Positions 4,725 through 42,539 of a stretch of DNA of 64,000 nt are shown one piece after another; the first letter of the stretch is position 1, and each line of letters starts with the position of its first letter. The stretch comes from a virus (taxonomy: Duplodnaviria; Caudoviricetes). The position numbers and the translations under genes were made by a program. The notes under the pieces were generated by a model, which worked only from the letters and a program-made list of their open reading frames with translations, searched no databases and had not been told where the DNA came from. The stretch spans positions 81,492 through 145,491 of IMG/VR virus record IMGVR_UViG_3300001598_001658; one strand, written 5' to 3'.

Positions 4725-4779
4725 AATAATGCTCCTTTATATCTTTTATATATTTATGTCATGTATAAAGAATAAAATA

Positions 4780-4809
4780 AACTAGACTCCTCATATGAGG
4801 AGTCTAGTT
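4780..4809. terminator. Perfect 30-bp palindrome, terminator after the tape measure gene
   Basis: AACTAGACTCCTCATATGAGGAGTCTAGTT; same 18-bp core as 53391-53420. Confidence 0.8.
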
Positions 4810-4814
4810 ATTAA

Positions 4815-7800
4815 TTATAAACCATTAGCAAGTTTATCAAACATGCCTTTGGTTATACTTGTAGAACTACCAGCTGTAGAGAATCCATTATTGTTACTTG
4901 CAATAATAGCTGCCCCAATACCAGCAATTCCAGCCATTAAATTTTTATAGAAAACCTCTTCGATCTGATTATGACGTTTAGTTTCATTTAATAATTCTCT
5001 CATTATTTCTACACCCTCAGAAGCTATATTATATAACTCATCAAATTTAGCAACAACAAGATTAGATGTAACTACGCCACTCTTTTCGGCAAGAGCATTT
5101 CCTTTTTCATTTAACTTAGAAACGGTTTCTTTTGCTTTATTCTTAACAGTCTTATAACCATTAAGAACAAGTGGATTAGAAATCTTAGCAGGTAATTTCT
5201 TGTAATCTATATTTGAAATATACTTACTTGCATTTGAAGCTACATTCTTTAAAGTAGATCTGAAATTAATAGCATCTGCTTGTTGTGTTTGTGCAACTGT
5301 AGCAGATCCACCTACTGGTGTATTAGGTAATTTGAAATTAGGATCTCCTAATTCAAAATGTGGTTTATCTGGCGTTGACCAGTATCCACCCCAATCGATT
5401 CCATATTCCTTTGCAATTGCACCAAGTTTATCATATCCAATATCTCCTGGTTCCAAGTCAACGGCAGAACCATTGAAATGGTTTGAAGCAAGAGTCCAAG
5501 TAATATAATCACCTGGTTTTTGGAATGATTTTGGCCAGAAATTAATACCATCTTTAAATCCTGCATATTTCATCAATTTGTCTGTTACCCAAGAAGGAGA
5601 TCTTCCTTTTGAATAATAAGCTAACTGAGTAGCAGGTGGTCTGTATGATTCACGAATAGAAACACCATGACCTTGAACTCTAGGATCTTTTAAGAATGCT
5701 TCGACTCTTTCGGCAAATACAGGGGAAAGAACCGATGTACTCTTTTGTTGTCCTAAAGCATTTTTATCAACAATATTTTTCTGGAGAGCAATTACATCAT
5801 TTACTCCGGTTTCATCATTGAATTTAGAACTTAATTCGAGTTCCATTTGTTTTCGTCTAGTGACAAATTCACCAATGGCATTAGCAGAACCTTTAATTTT
5901 ACTAAATATATTAGTGGCTCCAGATGCAACATTTTTTGATGCTCCTACTATTTTACTAGCAAGATTAGCTGCACCTTTAGCAAGCTTTCCACCAACAGCT
6001 TTGAGACCCGCTTTAAATCCTTTTTTCTGAGGTTTAATACCATTTCTTACAGCGGTCAATTTATCAAGAGCATTACTCTTAGATTCGTTTAATTTAGCAA
6101 GAGTATTCCATCCTGCAAAATATTTAGAATCAGTCATCTTTTTAAAATTAATACCGTCTGCTTGAAGTTCGTTTTCTTTATTAGTATCTTTATTGTCTCC
6201 AGTAATAGGTTTAGCTGTACCTTCAGCATTACTTACCGGATTAGGTTTTTCATTATTAGAGACAGATATTTTAGAAGAACCTGAAATATCAGTATTAATT
6301 TCATTATCCATTTTAGCATCCGGAAGATCAGGTTTAACAACAGTTTCTTCACTCTTAAGGTTTATTCCTTCTTTAGATAATTCCGCTGTACCTTCAGCAT
6401 TTTCTTTTGCTAAATTATTTTCATCTGTTTCTTTTTCTACAACAGCTGTTTCTTCATCATGTTTTTTGATTTCATCTTCTTCAGATTTACCTTTGCCTAA
6501 AGGACCAAGACCAGAGAGTTTATTTTTAGCCATATATGCTTTCGCAGCTTTCAAATATTCTTCTCTGAATTTAGCCTGATTATCTAATGCAGCTACATCA
6601 TCAGGATTGATTTTCTTGTCAACTTTACCACCATTAGCTTTAATCATTTCTTTATACATATCATCCAAAGGTTTATATACTTTCTCAAACCATGTTTTGA
6701 AACGTTCTATTGCACCTTTATCCTTTTTATCTTTCATAAAGCCAAGTATTGTAGCTCGTTTCTTATCTTGACCAAATACAATTTCAGTCCATGTCATAGT
6801 TTCGAATTCAACAAGTCTTCCATACTCAACTTCCATAATACTTGCACGTTGTTTATCGAACTCTTCAGCTGATTTCATCTGTTCTTTAGTAGCTTTAGAA
6901 CCAATGATTCCAAATACTAAATTAGCAATTGCATCAGGTGGAATTAATCCTAATGTTAAATTACCAGATATAGCTTTAGCTAAACCGGCAGTTATTCTCA
7001 TAGGCCATGTAGGTTTCATTCCTTTACCCATTTTAAAGTATCTAGGAGCTTCCGCCATACCTGTACCGATATCATAAACTAACTGTGCAACCATTACAGC
7101 CCAACCTACCCCGTTAGATATTTTAGCACAGAATGCTGTAATCTTACTAGATATTTTAGCTATTAATTTTGCTCCACCTTTAGTTAAGGATTTTTCCATC
7201 GATTTGATAAATGCTTTACTTACAGAATCTGCAGCTGCTTTACCACCAATTTTTGCGACAAGCTTAGGATCTTTAAATAGTTTAGCAACTAAACCTGAGA
7301 ATTTAGTAAATATTGCAGGAAGTTTACTTACACCCTTAGCAAATGTAGCAACATGTACTGCTTGATTTAATCCAAATCCTTTTCCAGCTTTTATATTTTT
7401 ATCTGTGATTTCATTACCATTGTTATCATAATTACCAGAGCCTCCGGCACCAAATAAACCAGAAACTTTTTCTCCAACAGAAGAATTTTTCCAATCTAAT
7501 TTTGTAGTTTTAAATTTATTAACAACTTGTTTTCCAAGCATAGCTGCACCTGCGGCAGCTGCACCAATAGTTGCAACGCCACCAGCGGTTTGTATCCCGG
7601 CTGCTATTTTACCACCAGCCGTTCCGAGTTTACTCCACTTAGATAAACTATTACCACCACCATCACCTTTTCCAACAGGCTTATTTTTTATATCCTCAAG
7701 TAATTCACCTTGTTTTTCAGAATTTTGATAATTAGCCATTAACAAACTACCAATATCCGGATTTGGCATAGCTGTTTCTTTTGCAGCAGCAGCTATAGTT

Positions 7801-10800
7801 TGAGGTGTACCTATTACAGCAGCAATGGAAGCAATATTATGTGCTAAATTATGTCTATCTTCTTTTTCTTCTTTAGTTTCTTTATCATTTTTCTGATCCT
7901 GATATGATCCTTCACTAGGAGCAGGTAATGCCAAAGTTCTATTATCCACATTAAGATTTTCTAATGTTCCGGAGAGTCTATCACCTATAGATTTTTTATC
8001 CCCAGCAGCAGCTTTTAAAGTTGCTTTTGGTGTTTTAGATACTTTAGATTTACTTTTATTTTCTTTACTCTTTATTTTTGTTACATCGGTTATTTTACCA
8101 TTTTCATTTATTTCTTGTTCAATGGCTTTTAATTCTTTGTAAGAATAAATCTCAAGAATATCATCTTCTGACATATTGAGCCGTGTAGTTAAATCACATC
8201 TATTAATTATATCTAATCCTTGTTTCTTATGGCGTCGTTTTACTCCACTTAAAGATCTTTTATTATCTTTTGAAGATTTTTTATTATCGACTTTCTCAAT
8301 TTTGATTCCGCCAATTTCATATACAGCATCTCGTACTTCTTCAATTTTTTCAATAATTTTTTTAACTGATTTAGAAGATATTTTTCCACCAGTTATTAAA
8401 TTACCTGTAGATTTTATAACACCTTTTCCGAAATCGAGCGCATGAGATACTAAACCTTTGGTTTTATCTTTTATATCAAGTCCTTTTTCTTTAGCTAAAT
8501 TAAGTAATTCTTCTCTAGATAAATTTTCTATTTTTTCTCTAGGTATTTCTAATTTTTTACTTATTTCATCTTTTAAAGTTTCTAAATCAGCTTTCTTACC
8601 AAACAAGATATCTTTACTTTTTGAAATAACTTTGCCTGTAAGAGTAGTAGCTGTTTTATCCCCCAAACCAATTGCGTCAAGTGCACTATTTACAAGACCA
8701 TTGGTTTTATTTGTTGTTTCGATACCATTCTCTTTAGCTAAATTAATCAAATCATCATGAGATAATTGTTTTAATTTTTTCAAACTAATTTTTGTTTTAT
8801 CATGTATCTTTTCTATCAGTGTATCGTCATCGATATCAGTCGTTTTACCAAATAAGAATTCATTGCCTTTAGTTAAAATATTTCCTGTTAATCCACTTAC
8901 GCCTTTTAAGCCTTTTTCAGCAAAATCTTTGACGTGTGTTAAAATTCCTTTTTCACGATCATTAACATCAATACCATTTTCTTTAGCCAATTTAATTAAA
9001 TCATCATACGACATTTCGTTCAATTCGCTTTTACTAATTTTCAATTTTTTACTTAATTGTTCAACGATTGGTTTGGTATCAACTATTTTCTTTTTACCAA
9101 ACAAAATATCTTTTCCTTTTCCAATAGTTCCAGATATAAGATTTTTACCTTTAGTAATTAAAGATTTTTCTTTTCTAATATCTTTAATCATCTTGATTAT
9201 TTGTTCTTTACTATATTTTTTACGAATATTTTCAATAGACATTCCAAGTCTTTCTTCAAGACCATATTTGATGATAAGATTCTCAACACTTTCTTTAGTC
9301 AAATCAAATTTATCCTTAATAAAATCAACACCTTTTTTGCCAGCATTGAGTGTACCTTTGCCTATATTTTTAGCTAAATCCAAACCTTTATCGAGAGTTG
9401 TAGCTGCAAATCCAAATACTTTTCCTGCCATATCTTTAGCTGTAGATCCTATTTTTCCAAAAAGACCAGATCCAACTACTCCAGGAATACCAATACCAAA
9501 ACCTATTTTTTCAGTATTATCAGCAATTCGATTTGTATTATTGTATATAGCCATTAAGATATCTTTATTAGTTTTAAATTCAACGTTTGCTTTTCTAGAA
9601 TCTGTTTTATTTTCATCTTTTTTATGATTAAATAATTTATCAATTATAGATTCAAAGAAGTTATTAGAATCTTTACCATTGAAGAATTCATATTCGCGAT
9701 CAACTCTTTCTTTTAATTTATTGAAGTTTTTAGGCAATTTAACTTCACCAGATGCAACGCTTCCAGCAGGATCGCTTTGGAAGAATGAGAGAGGCTTGCC
9801 TGTTATAACTTCTTTATATTCATTATTTGTAGTATATGTACCATCTTCATTTTTAACAGCATTATCATATTTATGATCAAAATAATAAGATTTTTCATCA
9901 CTGAGAGTTTTAACTTTATGTGATTTCATAAAATCTTTCTTTTCCTGTTCTATTTGACCAAGTAACGATTCGTCTGTTATTTTTTTATTTTCATTCCATC
10001 TTTCATCAAATTCAAAATGTGGTTGGTCATTTTTACCAGCCCATTTAATACCATATTTAGCAGCAATAGAAGCAATTTTTCCATATTTCATGTTTCCGTT
10101 AATAAGATCAATAGCCCTACCAGTCATATGATTTGAAGAAAGTGTTCTGGCAACAATACCATTTTCTCCCATTGCATTTTTAATGCTTTCAGGGAAATAT
10201 GTATCGTAATCGAGACCAGCATAAAACATCAGCTGTTTTGTTATCTTTGGATCTACGCGACCTTTAGAATATAAAGCAAACTGACGCAATGGAGAACGAA
10301 TAGAATCTTTAATTTGAATATTAGCGCCTTGTAATGCAGGATCAGCTAACATTTTATCTAAACGCAATTTAAATTCAGGATCAAGATGTTCCAAATGATC
10401 TTGACGATCTTTGAATTTATATCCTTCATGTGTGCTACTCTTAATTTTATTTGCAAATTCAAAAATAGCACTTTCATCACCAGAACTTAATAAAGCATCT
10501 ATTTCATCTTTTGTTTTAGGTTCTTTAATAAAAAGATTACCCGCCGATTTAGGACTATTAATAGCTGCTAAATTTTTATATTTTAAAATTCCGGTATTTC
10601 TTGAATTATCTTTTGTTTCTTTATTAAAAGATTTTAATTCCGATTTAGATTTATTTAAATTATCTAATAATTCTTTATGTACTTTAGCAATTTCATTTTC
10701 TTCATCTGATCTTTCATCTTTATTATCTGAAAATAAACGTTTTCCATCTTCAGTATATTTATCAGAATTATCTTTATAAAATTGCTTTAATTTTTCTTCA

Positions 10801-13800
10801 TTCTCTTTTACATTATTATTAAGCTCTTCTCTCTTATCACTAATCTCTTTATTTATTCTTTTATATTCTTTTTTATTTTGACGCGAAATTGATCCATTTT
10901 TTGTATCATTATCCATTTCATTAAATGAATATTCTTCGTTAACATCAAATGCATGTTTAGTTTTTTCTGTATAATATTCATCTCGATCATTTATATTTTC
11001 AATTTCACTATTTATTTTAATCCGATTATTATGAAATCTACTATTGTTATCTCTTGCAAGACGATTATTTGATTTTAAATAAGTAGATACTTCATTTATA
11101 TTTTTATATTTTCCATCAATTACTTTAATACCTATATCTTTTATTAATTTTTTATCATCTGAATCCAAATTACCAATTTTACCATAATAAATATCGGTTT
11201 CTTCATCTAATGAATCGACAATCATACCACCATTTTTAATAATATCTCGAGTTATTAAAAGCTTTGTTTTATCATCTAATGGTTCAAACCATACAGGATC
11301 AAGATATACATAAGCTCGTCCGTCGCCGCTTATATTGTTTAAAGTAGTACCTATTTTACTATATAAATCGCTACCCATAATCTGTTGTAAATATGTACCA
11401 TTCTTTTTTATCGATTCTTGTTTATCATATTTTTTCTTAATTTCTTTTTCTCGTTTTTTAGAAACAACAACATCTAATTTTTTAGATCCTTTTTCTGATA
11501 TATCCTGTATACTTTCTACGAGACTAGAAATAGACGATTGTTTTTCTTTTGATTTATTTTTCTTTTTACCAGAAATGGCGTTTTCAACATCTTTAAGCGT
11601 ATCAACTCTAAGTGCTTTTCGTTTTTTAGCCTCTTCTAATGCTTCTTTTGTAATATCTTTAGAAACTCCACCATTATTTAAATAATCCTCAGTAGCTTCT
11701 TTACCTATAATGCCATTCATTAACGATTCAAATGGATTCATTATTGCATTTGCAACATTATCAAATCCGATAAGATATCTCATTTTACCCATCATCGAAT
11801 CGTCATCTGCTCCCATAAAATTATAAGAACGTCTGCGTTTTTCATCTTCTTCGGCTATAAGTCTAGAATTTTCAGAATTGCTTTTTCTGAGTTCTATTAT
11901 ATCATTTTCTTTTTTCTTTTTTTCTTCTTCAGTTTTATCTTTATATTTTTTATAATCCAAAGAAGTAACGCCAAGTTCATTGATTCTTCTATTATAATCT
12001 TTTAAATTTGTCTCAGGTGTTATAGGATAAACCTTTATACCATTTAATAGAAGATCATATATATTGTCAATACTACTTTTGACATTATCAGAAATTGAAC
12101 CTACACTCGAATTTATATTTTGTGGTAATAAATCAACTTTTCCTACACGTTCACCATACATCGATTGTTCTGCAAGCAATTTATTTCGTCTAGCTGTCAT
12201 TTTATTATATTCATTTTTACCGGCTAAATCTTCATTATATTTAGATGAATATTGTAAATCGTAATCAATTTTTTCCCACTTTTCTTTTTCTTGCATTTCG
12301 GAAATAACACTTTTATTTCCGAATTTAACCATAGATTCTTTAAATTGTTTAGATGTACTTTCGATTTCAGATGCAACTTTTAATATACTATTATTGATAT
12401 CTCTTAAGTCACCAGGGGATAATGAAGAAATAGATTCTGCGATTAAATCTTTTATAGATTCTGTTTGTTCTCTATCTTCACCAATAGCTTCAAAACCTCT
12501 AAACATCTTATCTCTATATTCTTTATTTTTAAATAATTCTATAGGATTAAGTTCTATTTTGGATTGGATTAAATTTTCTTTAAATTTATCCATCGCTTTC
12601 TGTATTTGTCTTTCATCAATATCAAAATTAGAATATTTATTATCATTTATTAATTTTCCACCAGTACCTTCTATAATAGACATACCTTTAGAAAATTTAA
12701 CATTTCCATTAATTACATTTTCGCGTATCTGATCATATTTTTCACTAATGCTTTTTTGTGTTTCGAATCTATGTGAATCATAATTATAATATTGAATTTC
12801 GCTTCCATTTAATGCATTTAAAATTTGAGCCAAATATCCAGGTATCGTTTCGGTAATGGTTTCTTTTGTTTTGCCGTCAAAAACTGTTTGTTGATCTAAG
12901 TCTGTCGTTGTAAGATCTATATTTTTATCGATAGCAGTATCCTGACCTAATAAATTTCCCATAAAACTTAAGAAACTATTATCACTATCTTTAAGTCTAT
13001 TCATTTTACTTACAATAGTGCCACCGATATTTCCATATAAATCATTTAATCGGCCTAATTTATTTTTAGTTTCGCTACCCAATAAATTATTGAATACAAA
13101 ACTTTTAGCCATACTTCTTCCAATATCTAATGGATTTAATTTAAGTCCAGAATCTTTACCGATCATACCGGCCATACCAGACATCATATCATATGTCTGA
13201 CCTAACTGCGTATTGGAAAACATATTCATTGCATTTTCTTTAATTTGTTTAGCATATTTATCCATACTAAATGAACCAATTCCACCAAACAAATTTAAAT
13301 CTTCATTTTCTTCTAATTCAGCAAGTTCTTCTTCCGATTTAATACCTATTGCTCTATTATTAGCAGCTAAGATATCTTTTAATAAAGCACGCTGATCTGT
13401 TAAAAATGCTAAAGATTTGCTATCGTATTCGAGTTGAGCATTGATATTAGTTTTTCCATAATGCTCTAAGAAATCAGATAATCCATATATATTATTTGAT
13501 ATATTTGATAAGATAGCAATAATATCTTTGAAATTAGAATTATCAATGTGTGTTTTTGTCTCAAAAAGTTTTTTATTATTTGAATTGATAGATGCTGTAG
13601 ATGTTTCTTGTAATGCAGCATTTGCAGCTATATCACTTTCATCATTTGATTGATTCACTATGATAAGATTATTTTTGCGTCTAGGTCTTTTATAATTAAA
13701 AGACGTAGTCATTGATCCACTTGTATCTTCTTCTGTGGACTCTCCGACGTTCTCTTCATCATCATCATCCAAAAAAGCATCCATATCAATTTTAATATCT

Positions 13801-14243
13801 CTATTTGAGGTATAAAATTTACCACTTTTGATATTATTTTTTATTTCACCGAAAGCATTTTTAAAAGCACCTTTTGATTCTTCGGCACTTTCTTTGTTTG
13901 CTTTGTTAGATAAATTGCTTTTAAATGAGCTAAGTCCTTCAAAAACTTTATCTTTCTTTTCAAGAAAAACGTCTTTGGAATCGCCTATAGCAGATTTAAT
14001 GTCGTCTCCAAGACTAACAGCTTCTGGTAAAAATTCATCAACGAAATCTACACCAATACCTTTGATTGATTTCATTGTATTTACAAAGAAACCTTTGGCA
14101 CCGCCAGGACCATCTTCATTAGGATCGAATTTGAATCCTGCAAGATCGTCGTCATCATCATAGACAGAATCATCCAGAGGAAACATCTCATCATCGAATT
14201 CAAAGTCATCATTATCTATATTCATATTACCTTTTTTAGCCAT
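4815..14243 (-). CDS. Tape measure protein / tail-associated lysin with two M15 (L-Ala-D-Glu type) peptidase domains
   Basis: 3142 aa directly downstream of sheath and tube. Two R-x4-Q-x4-SKGR / S-N-H-x2-G-x-A-x-D / D-x-P-H-F-E motif sets; Gly/Ala-rich hydrophobic TMP-like segments; GGAGG RBS. Confidence 0.85.
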   Translation of the reverse strand: MAKKGNMNIDNDDFEFDDEMFPLDDSVYDDDDDLAGFKFDPNEDGPGGAKGFFVNTMKSIKGIGVDFVDEFLPEAVSLGDDIKSAIGDSKDVFLEKKDKVFEGLSSFKSNLSNKANKESAEESKGAFKNAFGEIKNNIKSGKFYTSNRDIKIDMDAFLDDDDEENVGESTEEDTSGSMTTSFNYKRPRRKNNLIIVNQSNDESDIAANAALQETSTASINSNNKKLFETKTHIDNSNFKDIIAILSNISNNIYGLSDFLEHYGKTNINAQLEYDSKSLAFLTDQRALLKDILAANNRAIGIKSEEELAELEENEDLNLFGGIGSFSMDKYAKQIKENAMNMFSNTQLGQTYDMMSGMAGMIGKDSGLKLNPLDIGRSMAKSFVFNNLLGSETKNKLGRLNDLYGNIGGTIVSKMNRLKDSDNSFLSFMGNLLGQDTAIDKNIDLTTTDLDQQTVFDGKTKETITETIPGYLAQILNALNGSEIQYYNYDSHRFETQKSISEKYDQIRENVINGNVKFSKGMSIIEGTGGKLINDNKYSNFDIDERQIQKAMDKFKENLIQSKIELNPIELFKNKEYRDKMFRGFEAIGEDREQTESIKDLIAESISSLSPGDLRDINNSILKVASEIESTSKQFKESMVKFGNKSVISEMQEKEKWEKIDYDLQYSSKYNEDLAGKNEYNKMTARRNKLLAEQSMYGERVGKVDLLPQNINSSVGSISDNVKSSIDNIYDLLLNGIKVYPITPETNLKDYNRRINELGVTSLDYKKYKDKTEEEKKKKENDIIELRKSNSENSRLIAEEDEKRRRSYNFMGADDDSMMGKMRYLIGFDNVANAIMNPFESLMNGIIGKEATEDYLNNGGVSKDITKEALEEAKKRKALRVDTLKDVENAISGKKKNKSKEKQSSISSLVESIQDISEKGSKKLDVVVSKKREKEIKKKYDKQESIKKNGTYLQQIMGSDLYSKIGTTLNNISGDGRAYVYLDPVWFEPLDDKTKLLITRDIIKNGGMIVDSLDEETDIYYGKIGNLDSDDKKLIKDIGIKVIDGKYKNINEVSTYLKSNNRLARDNNSRFHNNRIKINSEIENINDRDEYYTEKTKHAFDVNEEYSFNEMDNDTKNGSISRQNKKEYKRINKEISDKREELNNNVKENEEKLKQFYKDNSDKYTEDGKRLFSDNKDERSDEENEIAKVHKELLDNLNKSKSELKSFNKETKDNSRNTGILKYKNLAAINSPKSAGNLFIKEPKTKDEIDALLSSGDESAIFEFANKIKSSTHEGYKFKDRQDHLEHLDPEFKLRLDKMLADPALQGANIQIKDSIRSPLRQFALYSKGRVDPKITKQLMFYAGLDYDTYFPESIKNAMGENGIVARTLSSNHMTGRAIDLINGNMKYGKIASIAAKYGIKWAGKNDQPHFEFDERWNENKKITDESLLGQIEQEKKDFMKSHKVKTLSDEKSYYFDHKYDNAVKNEDGTYTTNNEYKEVITGKPLSFFQSDPAGSVASGEVKLPKNFNKLKERVDREYEFFNGKDSNNFFESIIDKLFNHKKDENKTDSRKANVEFKTNKDILMAIYNNTNRIADNTEKIGFGIGIPGVVGSGLFGKIGSTAKDMAGKVFGFAATTLDKGLDLAKNIGKGTLNAGKKGVDFIKDKFDLTKESVENLIIKYGLEERLGMSIENIRKKYSKEQIIKMIKDIRKEKSLITKGKNLISGTIGKGKDILFGKKKIVDTKPIVEQLSKKLKISKSELNEMSYDDLIKLAKENGIDVNDREKGILTHVKDFAEKGLKGVSGLTGNILTKGNEFLFGKTTDIDDDTLIEKIHDKTKISLKKLKQLSHDDLINLAKENGIETTNKTNGLVNSALDAIGLGDKTATTLTGKVISKSKDILFGKKADLETLKDEISKKLEIPREKIENLSREELLNLAKEKGLDIKDKTKGLVSHALDFGKGVIKSTGNLITGGKISSKSVKKIIEKIEEVRDAVYEIGGIKIEKVDNKKSSKDNKRSLSGVKRRHKKQGLDIINRCDLTTRLNMSEDDILEIYSYKELKAIEQEINENGKITDVTKIKSKENKSKSKVSKTPKATLKAAAGDKKSIGDRLSGTLENLNVDNRTLALPAPSEGSYQDQKNDKETKEEKEDRHNLAHNIASIAAVIGTPQTIAAAAKETAMPNPDIGSLLMANYQNSEKQGELLEDIKNKPVGKGDGGGNSLSKWSKLGTAGGKIAAGIQTAGGVATIGAAAAGAAMLGKQVVNKFKTTKLDWKNSSVGEKVSGLFGAGGSGNYDNNGNEITDKNIKAGKGFGLNQAVHVATFAKGVSKLPAIFTKFSGLVAKLFKDPKLVAKIGGKAAADSVSKAFIKSMEKSLTKGGAKLIAKISSKITAFCAKISNGVGWAVMVAQLVYDIGTGMAEAPRYFKMGKGMKPTWPMRITAGLAKAISGNLTLGLIPPDAIANLVFGIIGSKATKEQMKSAEEFDKQRASIMEVEYGRLVEFETMTWTEIVFGQDKKRATILGFMKDKKDKGAIERFKTWFEKVYKPLDDMYKEMIKANGGKVDKKINPDDVAALDNQAKFREEYLKAAKAYMAKNKLSGLGPLGKGKSEEDEIKKHDEETAVVEKETDENNLAKENAEGTAELSKEGINLKSEETVVKPDLPDAKMDNEINTDISGSSKISVSNNEKPNPVSNAEGTAKPITGDNKDTNKENELQADGINFKKMTDSKYFAGWNTLAKLNESKSNALDKLTAVRNGIKPQKKGFKAGLKAVGGKLAKGAANLASKIVGASKNVASGATNIFSKIKGSANAIGEFVTRRKQMELELSSKFNDETGVNDVIALQKNIVDKNALGQQKSTSVLSPVFAERVEAFLKDPRVQGHGVSIRESYRPPATQLAYYSKGRSPSWVTDKLMKYAGFKDGINFWPKSFQKPGDYITWTLASNHFNGSAVDLEPGDIGYDKLGAIAKEYGIDWGGYWSTPDKPHFELGDPNFKLPNTPVGGSATVAQTQQADAINFRSTLKNVASNASKYISNIDYKKLPAKISNPLVLNGYKTVKNKAKETVSKLNEKGNALAEKSGVVTSNLVVAKFDELYNIASEGVEIMRELLNETKRHNQIEEVFYKNLMAGIAGIGAAIIASNNNGFSTAGSSTSITKGMFDKLANGL

Positions 14244-39702: not shown

Positions 39703-40464
39703 ATGGAGAGCGCTATGGTTACGATGAATTTATTATTATTTCATCTAAAAGATGAATTGGGTGAGCCAATTTATAATACACAGAAACCAAGCTTCTACGA
39801 AGATATCTTAAATAAAAAAACTTTATTATTCTGGAGTACATATTTTCCAAAGATTGTAAAAGGAATTGAAATCAAACAAGAAGATGCTATTCCTTTAAAG
39901 AATCCTCAAACTGGAACTATGTGTACTTCTGGAATGTATAAAGTACCTAAATTTAATCCTAATGACGAATATATAAATTTTGAACAGGTTTTTTATCCTG
40001 GAAATTTAAATATGAATCAAGCTAGTAGTAATCTACCAGCTTTAAATGGTTTGTTAGGTCAAGTATCCGATTATCTACCAAATTCACAATATTATGGAGT
40101 TGATAGATACAGTTTTTCTTTTATGGCTCCTGATATTTTAACAATCGATCCTATACCGATGAAACATTTAAATTTCACAGTAAATATGCAAAGACTTGTT
40201 AGATTAACAGAAGTTCCTACATATTATTTCGAACCTTTTAAAAATCTCTTTTTAGCTGATTGTAAAATTTCTTTATATAATAAATATAAACACATCTCTG
40301 AAGGTGGTACTACTACTTATCAGGGTGTTGAAATTACAACAGAACTTCTTTCTAGTCTTAAAGAAGGAAAAGACGAACGAAAGGAATCGATAGAATTATT
40401 TGAAAAGAATTACTGGAAAGATGCTAGTAGATTTGGTTCATTTCTTAATTATGATGCACCTTAA
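39703..40464 (+). CDS. Putative neck/head-completion structural protein
   Basis: 253 aa coupled to the protease gene (start may be 39715); C-terminal helical pattern resembles gp13-like neck proteins. Confidence 0.45.
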   Translation: MESAMVTMNLLLFHLKDELGEPIYNTQKPSFYEDILNKKTLLFWSTYFPKIVKGIEIKQEDAIPLKNPQTGTMCTSGMYKVPKFNPNDEYINFEQVFYPGNLNMNQASSNLPALNGLLGQVSDYLPNSQYYGVDRYSFSFMAPDILTIDPIPMKHLNFTVNMQRLVRLTEVPTYYFEPFKNLFLADCKISLYNKYKHISEGGTTTYQGVEITTELLSSLKEGKDERKESIELFEKNYWKDASRFGSFLNYDAP

Positions 40465-40477
40465 AAATAAAAAAAAG

Positions 40478-40505
40478 AAACTCCGGAGATATTCTCCGGA
40501 GTTTC
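40478..40505. terminator. Bidirectional terminator ending the neck gene (+) and the RNA operon (-)
   Basis: GAAACTCCGGAGA-tat-TCTCCGGAGTTTC, with a long T-tract on the minus strand. Confidence 0.85.
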
Positions 40506-40509
40506 AAAT

Positions 40510-41355
40510 TTGTCTAGTTCTCGTATAGACACTGATCAATCAGAAATGCAGGCTGTCGAGGAATCTACCTATATGGTAGCCCTTGCAGAAGTTCCGACTT
40601 ACAATCCAAAACCAGACGCATTCCTCCTCTTCATTTTCTTATTCGCGATCGAGCCTCACCGCGCTCATAGGAATGCTGATTATTTATTTCTACTCCCTCA
40701 AGTATTCTATTTTCATAGCTTACTTAATATCTCTGTAGAAACTAACTGAATTCTACTTTCAAATGGATGGACTACGTTCCACTTTACTATTTCGAAGATT
40801 CTCAACGCATGCGAATTCTGCTACATACGTACATTATCAGCTGTCGCTGAATCTTATAAGGAATAATATAAACATTTGGGTCACTAATTTACTCGCCTCG
40901 TATAATTAACTCAGATTCATTGCTAATCATATAAAGTTTTCTAAAAGCCTTCTTCTGTTCCCATATTTGTCATTAAAATTAGATAAAGATAAAAATCGAT
41001 ATAAATATCAACGTTCATCTCTAGTCCGTCTAATTAATACTTGTCCGACATCAACAGAAGTATCGATGTCCTTAATCATAAAGTGCTTACCCAATGGCAT
41101 CACATTCCTTATGATAAGACTATTTGACGACAATAGCGCTGTTTCGAGCATGGTGCACTCCACCACAATCCATTCGAGTTGAAACAATTTAAAAATCATC
41201 TCTTTTAACACATCTCGTGATCTCGTTGTTTTCAGAGAATTGCTCGTTTCTCTATTACACCTTTTTACCACTTGATTCTTATGAACAGTCCAACGAACAT
41301 AAGCAGGACAACTATTGTGTGTAATACAAATCCCATCTAGCAGTGCCAGATGATT
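40510..41355 (-). ncRNA. Large structured ncRNA (GOLLD/ROOL-like class or new; may be two RNAs)
   Basis: About 850 nt with no RBS-led ORF and higher GC than the flanks; dense hairpins with several crossing pairings; runs from tRNA-Gln to the terminator. Confidence 0.65.
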
Positions 41356-41357
41356 AG

Positions 41358-41428
41358 CTCGGCCAGCAGGATTTGAACCCGCGAATTCGGCACCAAAAGC
41401 CGATGGCATACCGCTTACCGACAGCCGA
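41358..41428 (-). tRNA. tRNA-Gln(UUG)
   Basis: TCGGCTG/TGGCCGA acceptor; anticodon arm TCGGC-TTTTGGT-GCCGA; T arm GCGGG-TTCAAAT-CCTGC; no encoded CCA. Confidence 0.9.
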
Positions 41429-41441
41429 AAAAATAAAAAGC

Positions 41442-41540
41442 GAAGAGATAGCCGTTAAAAGAAGTCTACATCGTTTATTGCCTCCAAGAGCGTAACTACT
41501 CCTGTGTTTAATAACTATCTCTTCTAGCAGCAACGCTGCC
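41442..41540 (-). ncRNA. Spacer RNA D: end-paired structured RNA
   Basis: GAAGAGATAGTT...GGCTATCTCTTC 12-bp closing stem (G-U pairs favour the minus strand), preceded by a GGCAGC-GTT-GCTGCT hairpin and followed by a U-tract. Confidence 0.55.
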
Positions 41541-41543
41541 TAT

Positions 41544-41667
41544 CGGCCACTGTACGAATTGAACGCACACTTTTATATGCAAACAGGGCTTAAAGATTAC
41601 AACAGATACAGTAGAAGTATCTCTCTTAGTTTGCACATAATGTAGCTACCATTACTACCAAAAGGCC
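41544..41667 (-). ncRNA. tRNA-like RNA with a giant extended anticodon arm (124 nt)
   Basis: Acceptor GGCCTTT/AGTGGCC; D arm GTAG-TAATGGTAG-CTAC; T arm GTGCG-TTCAATT-CGTAC; anticodon arm is a 12-bp stem enclosing a 44-nt insert. Confidence 0.75.
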
Positions 41668-41679
41668 AAAAATAAAATA

Positions 41680-41752
41680 TGAATCGGATAACCGGAAAAT
41701 CAAAACCAAATTTATATAGGAGTCTAAATGACAAAGTTAGCTATCCGATTCA
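41680..41752 (-). ncRNA. Spacer RNA C: end-paired RNA with a large loop
   Basis: TGAATCGGATAGC...GTTATCCGATTCA 13-bp closing stem, followed by a U-rich tail. Confidence 0.55.
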
Positions 41753-41756
41753 AATA

Positions 41757-41829
41757 TGGGCCACCTAGGATTTGAACCTAGGACCAAAGGATTATGAGTC
41801 CCCTGCTCTAACCACTGAGCTAGTGGCCC
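41757..41829 (-). tRNA. tRNA with CAU anticodon, Ile2-type
   Basis: GGGCCAC-TA-GCTC-AGTGGTTA-GAGC-A-GGGGA-CTCATAA-TCCTT-TGGTC-CTAGG-TTCAAAT-CCTAG-GTGGCCC-A; resembles bacterial Ile2 more than Met tRNAs. Confidence 0.9.
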
Positions 41830-41834
41830 AAGAA

Positions 41835-42011: not shown

Positions 42012-42098
42012 TGCCGAGAACCAGACTTGAACTGGCACGCTGTTTGCACAGCAAGGGATTTTAAGTCCCTGGTGTCTACCAAATTCCACCATCTCGGC
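42012..42098 (-). tRNA. tRNA-Leu(UAA)
   Basis: GCCGAGA acceptor; AGGGA-CTTAAAA-TCCCT anticodon arm; long variable arm GCTGT-GCAA-ACAGC; T arm TTCAAGT. Confidence 0.95.
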
Positions 42099-42191: not shown

Positions 42192-42539
42192 TTATTTGAT
42201 TTCTTTTCTTTCACATTTAAAACCAGTATTGGCGATTGCGACGAATTCCTGACGTGGTGTCATATGAACACCAATTGATGCAGATACTTCGTATTTGCGG
42301 CCCTTTTCATCTGTTTCTGTGTGAGCACCGAGATGCTTAAGTACAGTTGCACAGTGTGGATTTTTGATAACCAGTACATCATTTTCTTTAAGGTTTGGGG
42401 CTTCTTCTTTTGCAATGTCATCAGTGACTTTATTGAGCGCATTCAATACTTCCTGAGATGTGCTCTTAGGAATACCACAGTCTTTTTCAATTCTTTCATT
42501 AACCGAAGTCCAGTTAATTGTCTTTACATTTTCAGCCAT
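42192..42539 (-). CDS. HU/IHF-like histone-like DNA-binding protein
   Basis: Two N-terminal helices ('ERIEKDCGIPKSTSQEVLNAL'), a beta-arm and C-terminal 'HMTPRQEFVAIAN'; AGGAGG RBS. Confidence 0.65.
   Translation of the reverse strand: MAENVKTINWTSVNERIEKDCGIPKSTSQEVLNALNKVTDDIAKEEAPNLKENDVLVIKNPHCATVLKHLGAHTETDEKGRKYEVSASIGVHMTPRQEFVAIANTGFKCERKEIK

Follow-up and report, generated by a model that had tools for sequence, protein, structure and literature searches.

A large, pseudoknotted non-coding RNA in the tRNA island of a jumbo-phage clade, probably representing an undescribed family

The tRNA island and its surroundings

The window considered here, i.e., the whole 64-kb stretch of DNA that was analysed, constitutes the final 64 kb of a 145-kb IMG/VR virus record (CheckV completeness ~51%) and has a G+C content of ~30%. 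Its phage genes, encoding a terminase, tail sheath, baseplate, prohead protease and SbcC-like nuclease, point to a myovirus-type jumbo phage. One open reading frame of 3142 aa (4815-14243, minus strand) is located within the phage structural region. Between a virion-protein gene (39703-40464, plus strand) and a gene for a 115-aa protein (42192-42539, minus strand) lies a 1.7-kb stretch without credible genes. On the minus strand, to which all further window coordinates refer, this stretch is made up of tRNA-Leu(UAA) (42012-42098), tRNA-Met (41756-41830), a 327-nt spacer (41429-41755), tRNA-Gln(UUG) (41357-41428; called by ARAGORN and matched by the Rfam tRNA model at 50 bits), a large RNA (40512-41356; about 820-845 nt here) and an intrinsic terminator (40477-40505) with a 13-bp stem followed by a U run, which is readable on both strands.

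The 5′ boundary of the large RNA is set by the 3′ end of tRNA-Gln, and the terminator, beginning 6 nt past the 3′ end of the RNA in the window phage, closes the tRNA/RNA transcription unit. No promoter-like site was found within the large RNA on its own strand; candidate promoters lie upstream of the tRNA island. The RNA is present as a single copy in the 145-kb record, and the minimum free energy of 40512-41356 amounts to -242.6 kcal/mol, as compared to -209.2 +/- 7.3 kcal/mol for shuffled sequences (z = -4.6). Conservation extends to the 327-nt spacer separating tRNA-Met from tRNA-Gln, which shows ~62-70% identity to two of the related loci introduced below (L010 and L024) and is probably a further structured RNA.

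Relatives and distribution

Relatives were gathered via the 253-aa virion protein (37-82% identity in ENA, Logan, and NCBI assemblies), and their contigs were fetched. Initial plain blastn among these contigs matched the tRNAs alone; blastn with the JGI loci L026 and L027 gave ~62% identity over ~600 nt. A profile of three sequences (window, L026, and L027) was used to find further copies, with nhmmer matches at E values of about 1e-260 for L026 and L027, 3e-20 for L024, about 1e-16 for L010-L013 and 9e-7 for L020-L023. The profile also matches the 3′ end of the RNA in L003, whose sequence is identical to that of L002. This amounts to seven distinct copies in five lineages (window; L026/L027; L024; L010; L020/L002), ranging in size from about 510 to 870 nt, with L010 lacking ~250 nt of the 5′ half and both L024 and L020 carrying inserts.

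The position of the RNA relative to tRNA genes recurs across these lineages. It is preceded on the same strand by tRNA-Gln(UUG) in L002, L010, L024, L026, L027, and the window, and starts 3-25 nt past this tRNA in every lineage with an upstream tRNA called. At the other end, the next tRNA begins 0-14 nt past the terminal hairpin in L002, L010, L020, L026, and L027, its identity depending on the lineage: tRNA-Met in L026 and L027, tRNA-Ile in L010, tRNA-Thr in L002 and an odd tRNA in L020. A terminator rather than a tRNA follows the RNA in the window and in L024. The odd tRNA was called by ARAGORN directly 3′ of the large RNA on the minus strand of four loci (L020:1799-1875, L021:1887-1963, L022:940-1016, and L023:1734-1810); it has an 8-nt anticodon loop with the anticodon written ttaa, matches the Rfam tRNA model at 49 bits and could be either four-base-decoding or degenerate.

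The RNA is not a constant companion of these phages. It is absent from the close relatives L015 and L018 although their tRNAs are kept, and distant relatives whose virion protein is 53-66% identical (L004, L005, and L007-L009; about 4750-5200) possess no tRNA island, the 115-aa gene sitting ~50 nt past the virion gene. The missing island in these distant relatives marks the island together with its RNA as an accessory insert, and the lack of the RNA in L015 and L018, combined with that of the island in L004, L005, and L007, indicates that the RNA is dispensable for this type of phage. A 520-nt non-coding sequence after tRNA-Gln in L018 (4751-5270) was excluded from the family, as it contains none of the family motifs and is matched neither by nhmmer nor by the covariance model R1 described below.

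The locus also appears as a hot spot of variation (L014, L018, and L026): in L014 (4751-6548), tRNA-Arg and two open reading frames of 200 and 214 aa are found where the RNA would be, and L026 carries an additional 194-aa open reading frame (4791-5375) past tRNA-Met. Another fetched contig, L034 (115-3145), encodes a 215-aa protein that aligns with the virion protein at 80% identity over 62% of its length, has a GH92 Pfam match and adjoins glycoside hydrolase 92 genes; this contig is most likely a chimeric assembly.

Beyond the fetched contigs, blastn in distant mode against public phage genomes gave no match. IMG/VR yielded no relative of the flanking genes in single-protein and alignment-based locus searches, and no match to three DNA patterns of the RNA. 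Of these three, a degenerate pattern with 24 fixed bases finds all 13 fetched loci with a standard (non-insert) 3′ domain, and an earlier, stricter pattern was without a match in the GTDB genomes as well. A protein-alignment search of the GTDB genomes returned one contig only, from which the RNA is absent. The outcome of the pattern searches suggests that the family is rare and, but for the present record, missing from IMG/VR; as far as seen, the RNA appears confined to one narrow jumbo-phage clade from gut and rumen-type metagenomes.

Architecture and covariation of the large RNA

The most conserved part of the RNA is its 3′ domain (40512-40681). It comprises the stem Px (GCAUUCC/GGAAUGC; 40670-40676 with 40618-40624), the hairpin H1 (40660-40663 and its partner), an A-rich strand ending in GAGGA, the stems Py (40611-40615 with 40532-40536) and Pz (40605-40608 with 40541-40544) and a terminal hairpin (40512-40530) that exposes the invariant loop UACGAGAAC (40517-40525). 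The covariance model R1, based on a hand-written 23-pair structure on a MAFFT alignment of this domain, matches one site per locus in every homologue at 83-120 bits (window: 40513-40681 at 89 bits). In the R1-fitted alignment, 95.5% of the cells are paired; sliding the 3′ partners by 1-3 columns lowers this to 34-49%. Changes on both sides occur in 18 of the 23 pairs, and values as high as those observed did not occur in 500 shuffles. For example, Px reads GCAUUCC/GGAAUGC in the window, GCAUCUC/GAGAUGC in L026 and GUCAUUC/GAAUGAC in L020, and Py occurs as CUGGU/AUCAG, ACACA/UGUGU, CAUCA/UGAUG, CUCCA/UGGAG, and CUUCG/CGAAG. The stem of the terminal hairpin varies between GUCUA/UAGAC, GCCG/CGGC, GAGA/UCUC, and CGG/CCG around its unchanging loop.

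A first-pass annotation, made from the letters of the window, had proposed a pseudoknot-rich RNA of ~850 nt after tRNA-Gln and named four stems, all of which are present on the minus strand where it had placed them and are kept with differing sequences in the relatives. The fourth of these corresponds to Px and shares, together with its inner CGCG hairpin, in the covariation of the 3′ domain (18/23 pairs). For the GAGC/GCUC pairing that had been read inside this stem, a counterpart is found in L020/L002 only (UCAUGC/GCAUGA).

Two lineage-specific additions to the 3′ domain deserve mention. In the window phage only, Pz carries a 54-nt insert in its loop, a hairpin (40545-40598) containing a second copy of ACUUCUG, which in the Pi loop is the partner of the GAAG box (see below). 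The 3′ domains of L024:5045-5192, L020:1888-2045, and L002:4964-5118 contain hairpins with an invariant 14-nt loop, GAAAUGAUCAAGUA, which includes the palindrome UGAUCA. The stems of these hairpins covary (UCUC/GAGA, CUGU/ACAG), and L024 has an extra copy ~25 nt downstream of the RNA; the copy of the RNA in the window has no such hairpin. The GAAAUGAUCAAGUA loop is a candidate for a loop-loop contact.

At the opposite end, a leader hairpin P0 (41333-41353) is specific to the window phage and L024; it is absent in L026, L010, and L002, where the invariant GGAUU begins 3-4 nt past the tRNA. The 5′ domain (41226-41333) itself consists of this GGAUU (41329-41333), the stem Pa (UAUUACAC/GUGUAAUA; 41319-41326 with 41253-41260) with an inner hairpin Pb, the invariant UGGUAA (41265-41270) and the hairpin Pc (AGAGAA/UUCUCU; 41234-41253). 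Pa, Pb, and Pc are found at homologous positions with different sequences in the lineages examined, which bears out the first two named stems (Pa and Pc, respectively). The crossing GUCC/GGAC and CUUAUG/CAUAAG pairings that had been read into Pa are a peculiarity of the window phage, the relatives having a plain hairpin of 7-12 bp instead.

The loop of Pc (CGAGCA, 41241-41246) is complementary to UGCUCG (41145-41150), giving the pseudoknot PK1 (41145-41246), whose partner strands are ~95 nt apart and enclose Pd (41222-41225 with 41175-41178), a hairpin with a GAGAU pentaloop, Pe (41181-41202) and Pf (41151-41165). This pseudoknot, already noticed in the first reading of the window, is real: its counterparts are UGAGGU/ACCUCA (L026) and GAAGUA/UACUUC (L024), and it covaries in three lineages, with changes on both sides in four of its six pairs and 91.7% of cells paired, as compared to 21-46% when slid.

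The central part is formed by the long stem Ph (41075-41115) and the hairpin Pi (41047-41070; GACAUCGA/UUGAUGUC), which displays a conserved ACUUCU in its loop and equals the third named stem, again kept in the relatives with a different sequence. The central stems were assessed on a plain MAFFT alignment fitted to no structure, covering 27 pairs of Pf, Ph, and Pi. Here, 91.5% of cells are paired (36-45% when slid), 13 of the 27 pairs show double changes, and in 500 shuffles neither the paired fraction nor the covariation score came up to the observed value. A further hairpin following AAACAGCG, termed Pg, was dropped, as no single register fits it across the lineages.

A second long-range pseudoknot, PK3, arises from pairing of CUUCUG in the Pi loop (41055-41060) with CAGAAG (40952-40957) of an invariant GAAGAA box ~100 nt downstream of that loop. 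The corresponding pairings are CUUCG/CGAAG in L026, CUUCUC/GAGAAG in L024 and CUUCUA/UAGAAG in L020/L002, i.e., the four core pairs do not vary among six sequences, and covariation is seen in the two flanking ones (UA/GC and GC/CG/AU). PK3 supersedes an earlier proposal that AUACUU of the same hairpin pairs with a downstream AAGUAU; the latter combination is almost invariant and mismatched in L026/L027, and the loop pairs better with the GAAG box. It also speaks to the suspicion that an AT-rich stretch near 40970-41010 splits the region into RNAs of ~350 and ~450 nt. This stretch is a variable hairpin (at about 40991-41014) and is spanned by PK3, which argues for one RNA and not two.

Downstream of the box follows the middle domain (40682-40951). 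Its stem Pk (40924-40931 with 40901-40908) abuts a conserved UACGAGG(Y)GA(R)UAA motif (40896-40902 onward); the helices beyond are resolved less clearly. According to nhmmer, homology in this domain is continuous in L026, L027, and L010-L013 and partial in L020-L023; the window, L026, and L010 are homologous in the stretch 40682-40900, whose helices are poorly resolved.

MAFFT alignments were in places too poor for a second covariance model, and a table of ten helices (Pa, Pc, PK1, Pd, Pe, Pf, Ph, Pi, PK3, and Pk; 62 pair columns) was built from coordinates with a script. It gives 98.6% paired cells (38-46% when slid), a percentage that is biased upwards by the helices having been hand-picked from the same sequences, which applies less to the tests of the 3′ domain, the central stems and PK1. 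Compensatory changes occur in 38 of the 62 columns. As comparative evidence, the table draws its weight from the homologous positions of the putative helices beside invariant motifs and from the number of double changes. Run blind on a three-sequence alignment, RNAalifold found 37 compensatory pairs and recovered several of the ten helices.

Chance is excluded as a source of these patterns, both by the z-score of -4.6 and by the failure of all 500 shuffles to match the covariation score or paired fraction for the 3′ domain and central stems. Summed up, comparison of the five lineages shows at least 15 predicted helices and two long-range pseudoknots to be maintained by compensatory changes, accompanied by the invariant single-stranded motifs GGAUU, UGGUAA, ACUUCU, GAAGAA, and UACGAGAAC. 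With these extensive compensatory changes in the homologues, the original observation at 40512-41356 is confirmed, at the level of sequence comparison, as one conserved, highly structured non-coding RNA.

Identity, production, and possible role of the RNA

The window, the region alone and the homologous loci were searched with cmscan against all 4227 families of Rfam 15, at the gathering score and at E<=10. At the gathering score, only tRNAs were matched; at E<=10, even when the 0.7-0.9 kb was searched alone with the laxest filters, any copy gave only tRNAs and noise (e.g., RT-2 at 12.6 bits as compared to a cut-off of 40). The ROOL model (RF03087, gathering score 99.1 bits) has no match at E<=10 in the window, the 0.86-kb region or six homologous loci, nor does GOLLD in the all-family scan of any copy. 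ROOL run alone on the 145-kb record also found nothing, a result that is weak singly given that control genomes were without a match, too. No tRNA or tmRNA was matched inside 40500-41360 at E<=10, where ARAGORN calls only the three flanking tRNAs, and the RNase P models gave no match at E<=10. The same holds true for the Rfam models of group I and II introns, with Group-II-D1D4-1 absent from the record; the RNA is flanked by a complete tRNA and a terminator and not by exon halves. GOLLD, ROOL, tmRNA, RNase P, and introns were the models suggested for a check in the first-pass annotation, which could assign the RNA to no family and considered a GOLLD- or ROOL-like nature. None of them matches, nor does any Rfam family in the window or homologues. 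Its interpretation as a large structured RNA is supported by the compensatory changes in the homologues; it erred in two details only, the division into two RNAs and part of the crossing pairings. The lack of any Rfam match combined with the covariation argues for a new family that is neither GOLLD nor ROOL. A literature search found no paper describing such an RNA, and a set of 10,006 viral candidate RNAs contains none longer than 151 nt (PMC10690425).

An open reading frame of 133 codons in the region (41008-41409) begins inside tRNA-Gln and is open in the window only; it is closed in all homologues, in which the longest sense-strand frame has 53 codons. All nine indels between the window and L026 are out of frame, the 133-aa translation is without a match in Pfam and PHROGs, and tblastx finds no similarity. 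Open reading frames under code 11, with TAG read as Q, or under code 4 (TGA as W) yielded no credible gene, showing modest lengthening and noise-like translations. The large RNA is not coding.

Among known RNAs, ROOL and GOLLD come closest in setting. Both are of large size, are encoded by phages or prophages close to tRNA islands and assemble into cages devoid of protein; ROOL can equal 16S rRNA in abundance, GOLLD increases during lysis, and the latter has a conserved 3′ and a variable 5′ region (PMC5737381; bioRxiv 10.1101/2024.12.08.627333). Like ROOL, the RNA described here is a large, ornate, pseudoknotted phage RNA from rumen and gut material with few highly conserved nucleotides (PMC5737381), located beside tRNA islands (here directly after tRNA-Gln) and lacking a dedicated protein gene. 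However, its conserved motifs differ, it measures about 510-870 nt as compared to a mean of 581 for ROOL, and it occurs in one narrow jumbo-phage clade, whereas ROOL is found in three phyla. With GOLLD, it shares a size of ~800 nt, the encoding by phages, adjacent tRNAs (GOLLD env-38 lies downstream of tRNA-Met) and a conserved 3′ domain, matched by R1 in all copies, next to a variable 5′ half, which is a resemblance and not homology; in contrast to GOLLD, it has no embedded tRNA, and its helices and conserved loops are different.

OLE RNA, an approximately 600-nt bacterial RNA that forms a homodimer (bioRxiv 10.1101/2024.12.08.627333), resembles it in its extensive conserved structure but is chromosomal, works with Oap proteins and has no link to tRNAs or phages; its Rfam model has no match here. 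With regard to production, a parallel exists in species 1 and 2 (RNA C and D) of phage T4. These are simple, stable non-tRNA RNAs of about 120-140 nt that are encoded in the phage tRNA cluster, co-transcribed with it and released by the tRNA-processing machinery. The present RNA, likewise a non-tRNA RNA within a phage tRNA cluster, is six times larger, with many helices and pseudoknots.

It is very likely that we are dealing with a real structured RNA family. Our preferred explanation, which we consider probable with some reserve, is an undescribed family of large (~0.5-0.87 kb), multi-domain, pseudoknotted non-coding RNAs in the tRNA island of a myovirus-type jumbo-phage clade that would be tRNA-processed, stable, and trans-acting. 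The RNA would share a minus-strand transcript with tRNA-Leu, tRNA-Met, and tRNA-Gln, started at a promoter ahead of the island, and be excised by host tRNA-processing enzymes, with RNase Z or 3′ trimming at tRNA-Gln generating its 5′ end and RNase P at the next tRNA, or the terminator in the window phage, its 3′ end. Such a release by tRNA processing is reasonably likely. The freed RNA may then persist during infection as a stable, compactly folded, trans-acting RNA.

The least certain step concerns what it might do. Conceivably, it forms an RNA particle of the ROOL/GOLLD type without a dedicated protein gene, maybe via its conserved exposed loops, and possibly targets translation or host defence. 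A trans-acting particle is favoured here because ROOL and GOLLD are also large phage RNAs of tRNA islands that form cages; a role like theirs, or self-assembly, nevertheless appears doubtful when judged by itself. If self-assembly did occur, contacts within the multimer may involve UACGAGAAC and the ACGAG-type loops, joined in some lineages by the palindromic UGAUCA loop. The furthest-reaching version, in which a third independent class of giant phage RNA would be made in bulk from the tRNA island as a self-assembling multimeric particle acting on translation or defence, is unlikely.

Marginally less likely again is that the RNA serves as a decoy or sponge for a host factor acting on tRNA or translation (e.g., an anticodon nuclease, an RNase, or the ribosome) and thus as an anti-defence RNA. 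In favour of this, it neighbours the tRNA genes of the phage itself, and according to one view phage tRNAs stand in for host tRNAs cleaved during defence. The repeated exposed A/CGAG-type loops (ACGAGCAA, UACGAGG, and UACGAGAAC) are candidate binding sites, and GOLLD was reported to pull down ribosomes (bioRxiv 10.1101/2024.12.08.627333), but the tRNA model detects no tRNA-like element inside the RNA at E<=10. Such a function would, moreover, overlap with our preferred explanation rather than oppose it.

Another scenario, to be regarded as distinctly improbable, is a cis-acting spacer of the tRNA operon that guides or times tRNA processing or protects the 3′ end of the transcript and has no role once released. 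This would agree with the position of the RNA, which always has a tRNA on its 5′ side and another tRNA or a terminator on its 3′ side, and with its loss along with the tRNA island in the more distant relatives. However, a size of 500-870 nt, no fewer than 15 covarying helices, two long-range pseudoknots and several invariant loops far exceed what a processing signal needs, the RNA is kept while the 3′ tRNA varies (Met, Ile, Thr, or none), and L015 and L018 retain tRNAs without it.

It is highly improbable that the RNA belongs to ROOL or GOLLD as a very diverged representative instead of forming a new family. The setting in a phage beside tRNAs and the size class are the same, and a conserved 3′ part with a modular 5′ part is also seen in GOLLD; yet no copy matched at E<=10 even with 0.7-0.9 kb searched under the laxest filters, and the whole record is without a ROOL match (weak singly, as stated above for the control genomes). 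Furthermore, according to the cryo-EM paper, ROOL and GOLLD themselves have no common sequence or secondary structure (bioRxiv 10.1101/2024.12.08.627333).

Finally, a protein-coding 133-codon frame, or a decayed gene or mobile-element remnant (intron or homing-endonuclease gene), has a negligible chance of being the true explanation, as an open frame of this length is unusual at about 35-40% G+C but the coding reading is already refuted by its start in tRNA-Gln, closure in every homologue, out-of-frame indels and empty Pfam, PHROG, and tblastx searches, and an intron by the lack of any group I/II model match or flanking exon halves.

To our knowledge, bacteria and phages very rarely have structured non-coding RNAs exceeding 500 nt; beyond rRNA, group II introns, RNase P, and tmRNA, few classes (OLE, GOLLD, ROOL, HEARO, and raiA) are known to us. 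If our preferred explanation, an undescribed family of trans-acting RNAs released from the tRNA island, is true, the existence of an RNA that is unrelated to GOLLD and ROOL but matches them in size and genomic setting would mean that phages invented such RNAs repeatedly, and it would provide a third system for asking what giant phage RNAs do. Comparison with its modular relatives, among them one without ~250 nt of the RNA, delimits a minimal core for structural studies, and its location between tRNAs suggests a production route that is simple and testable.
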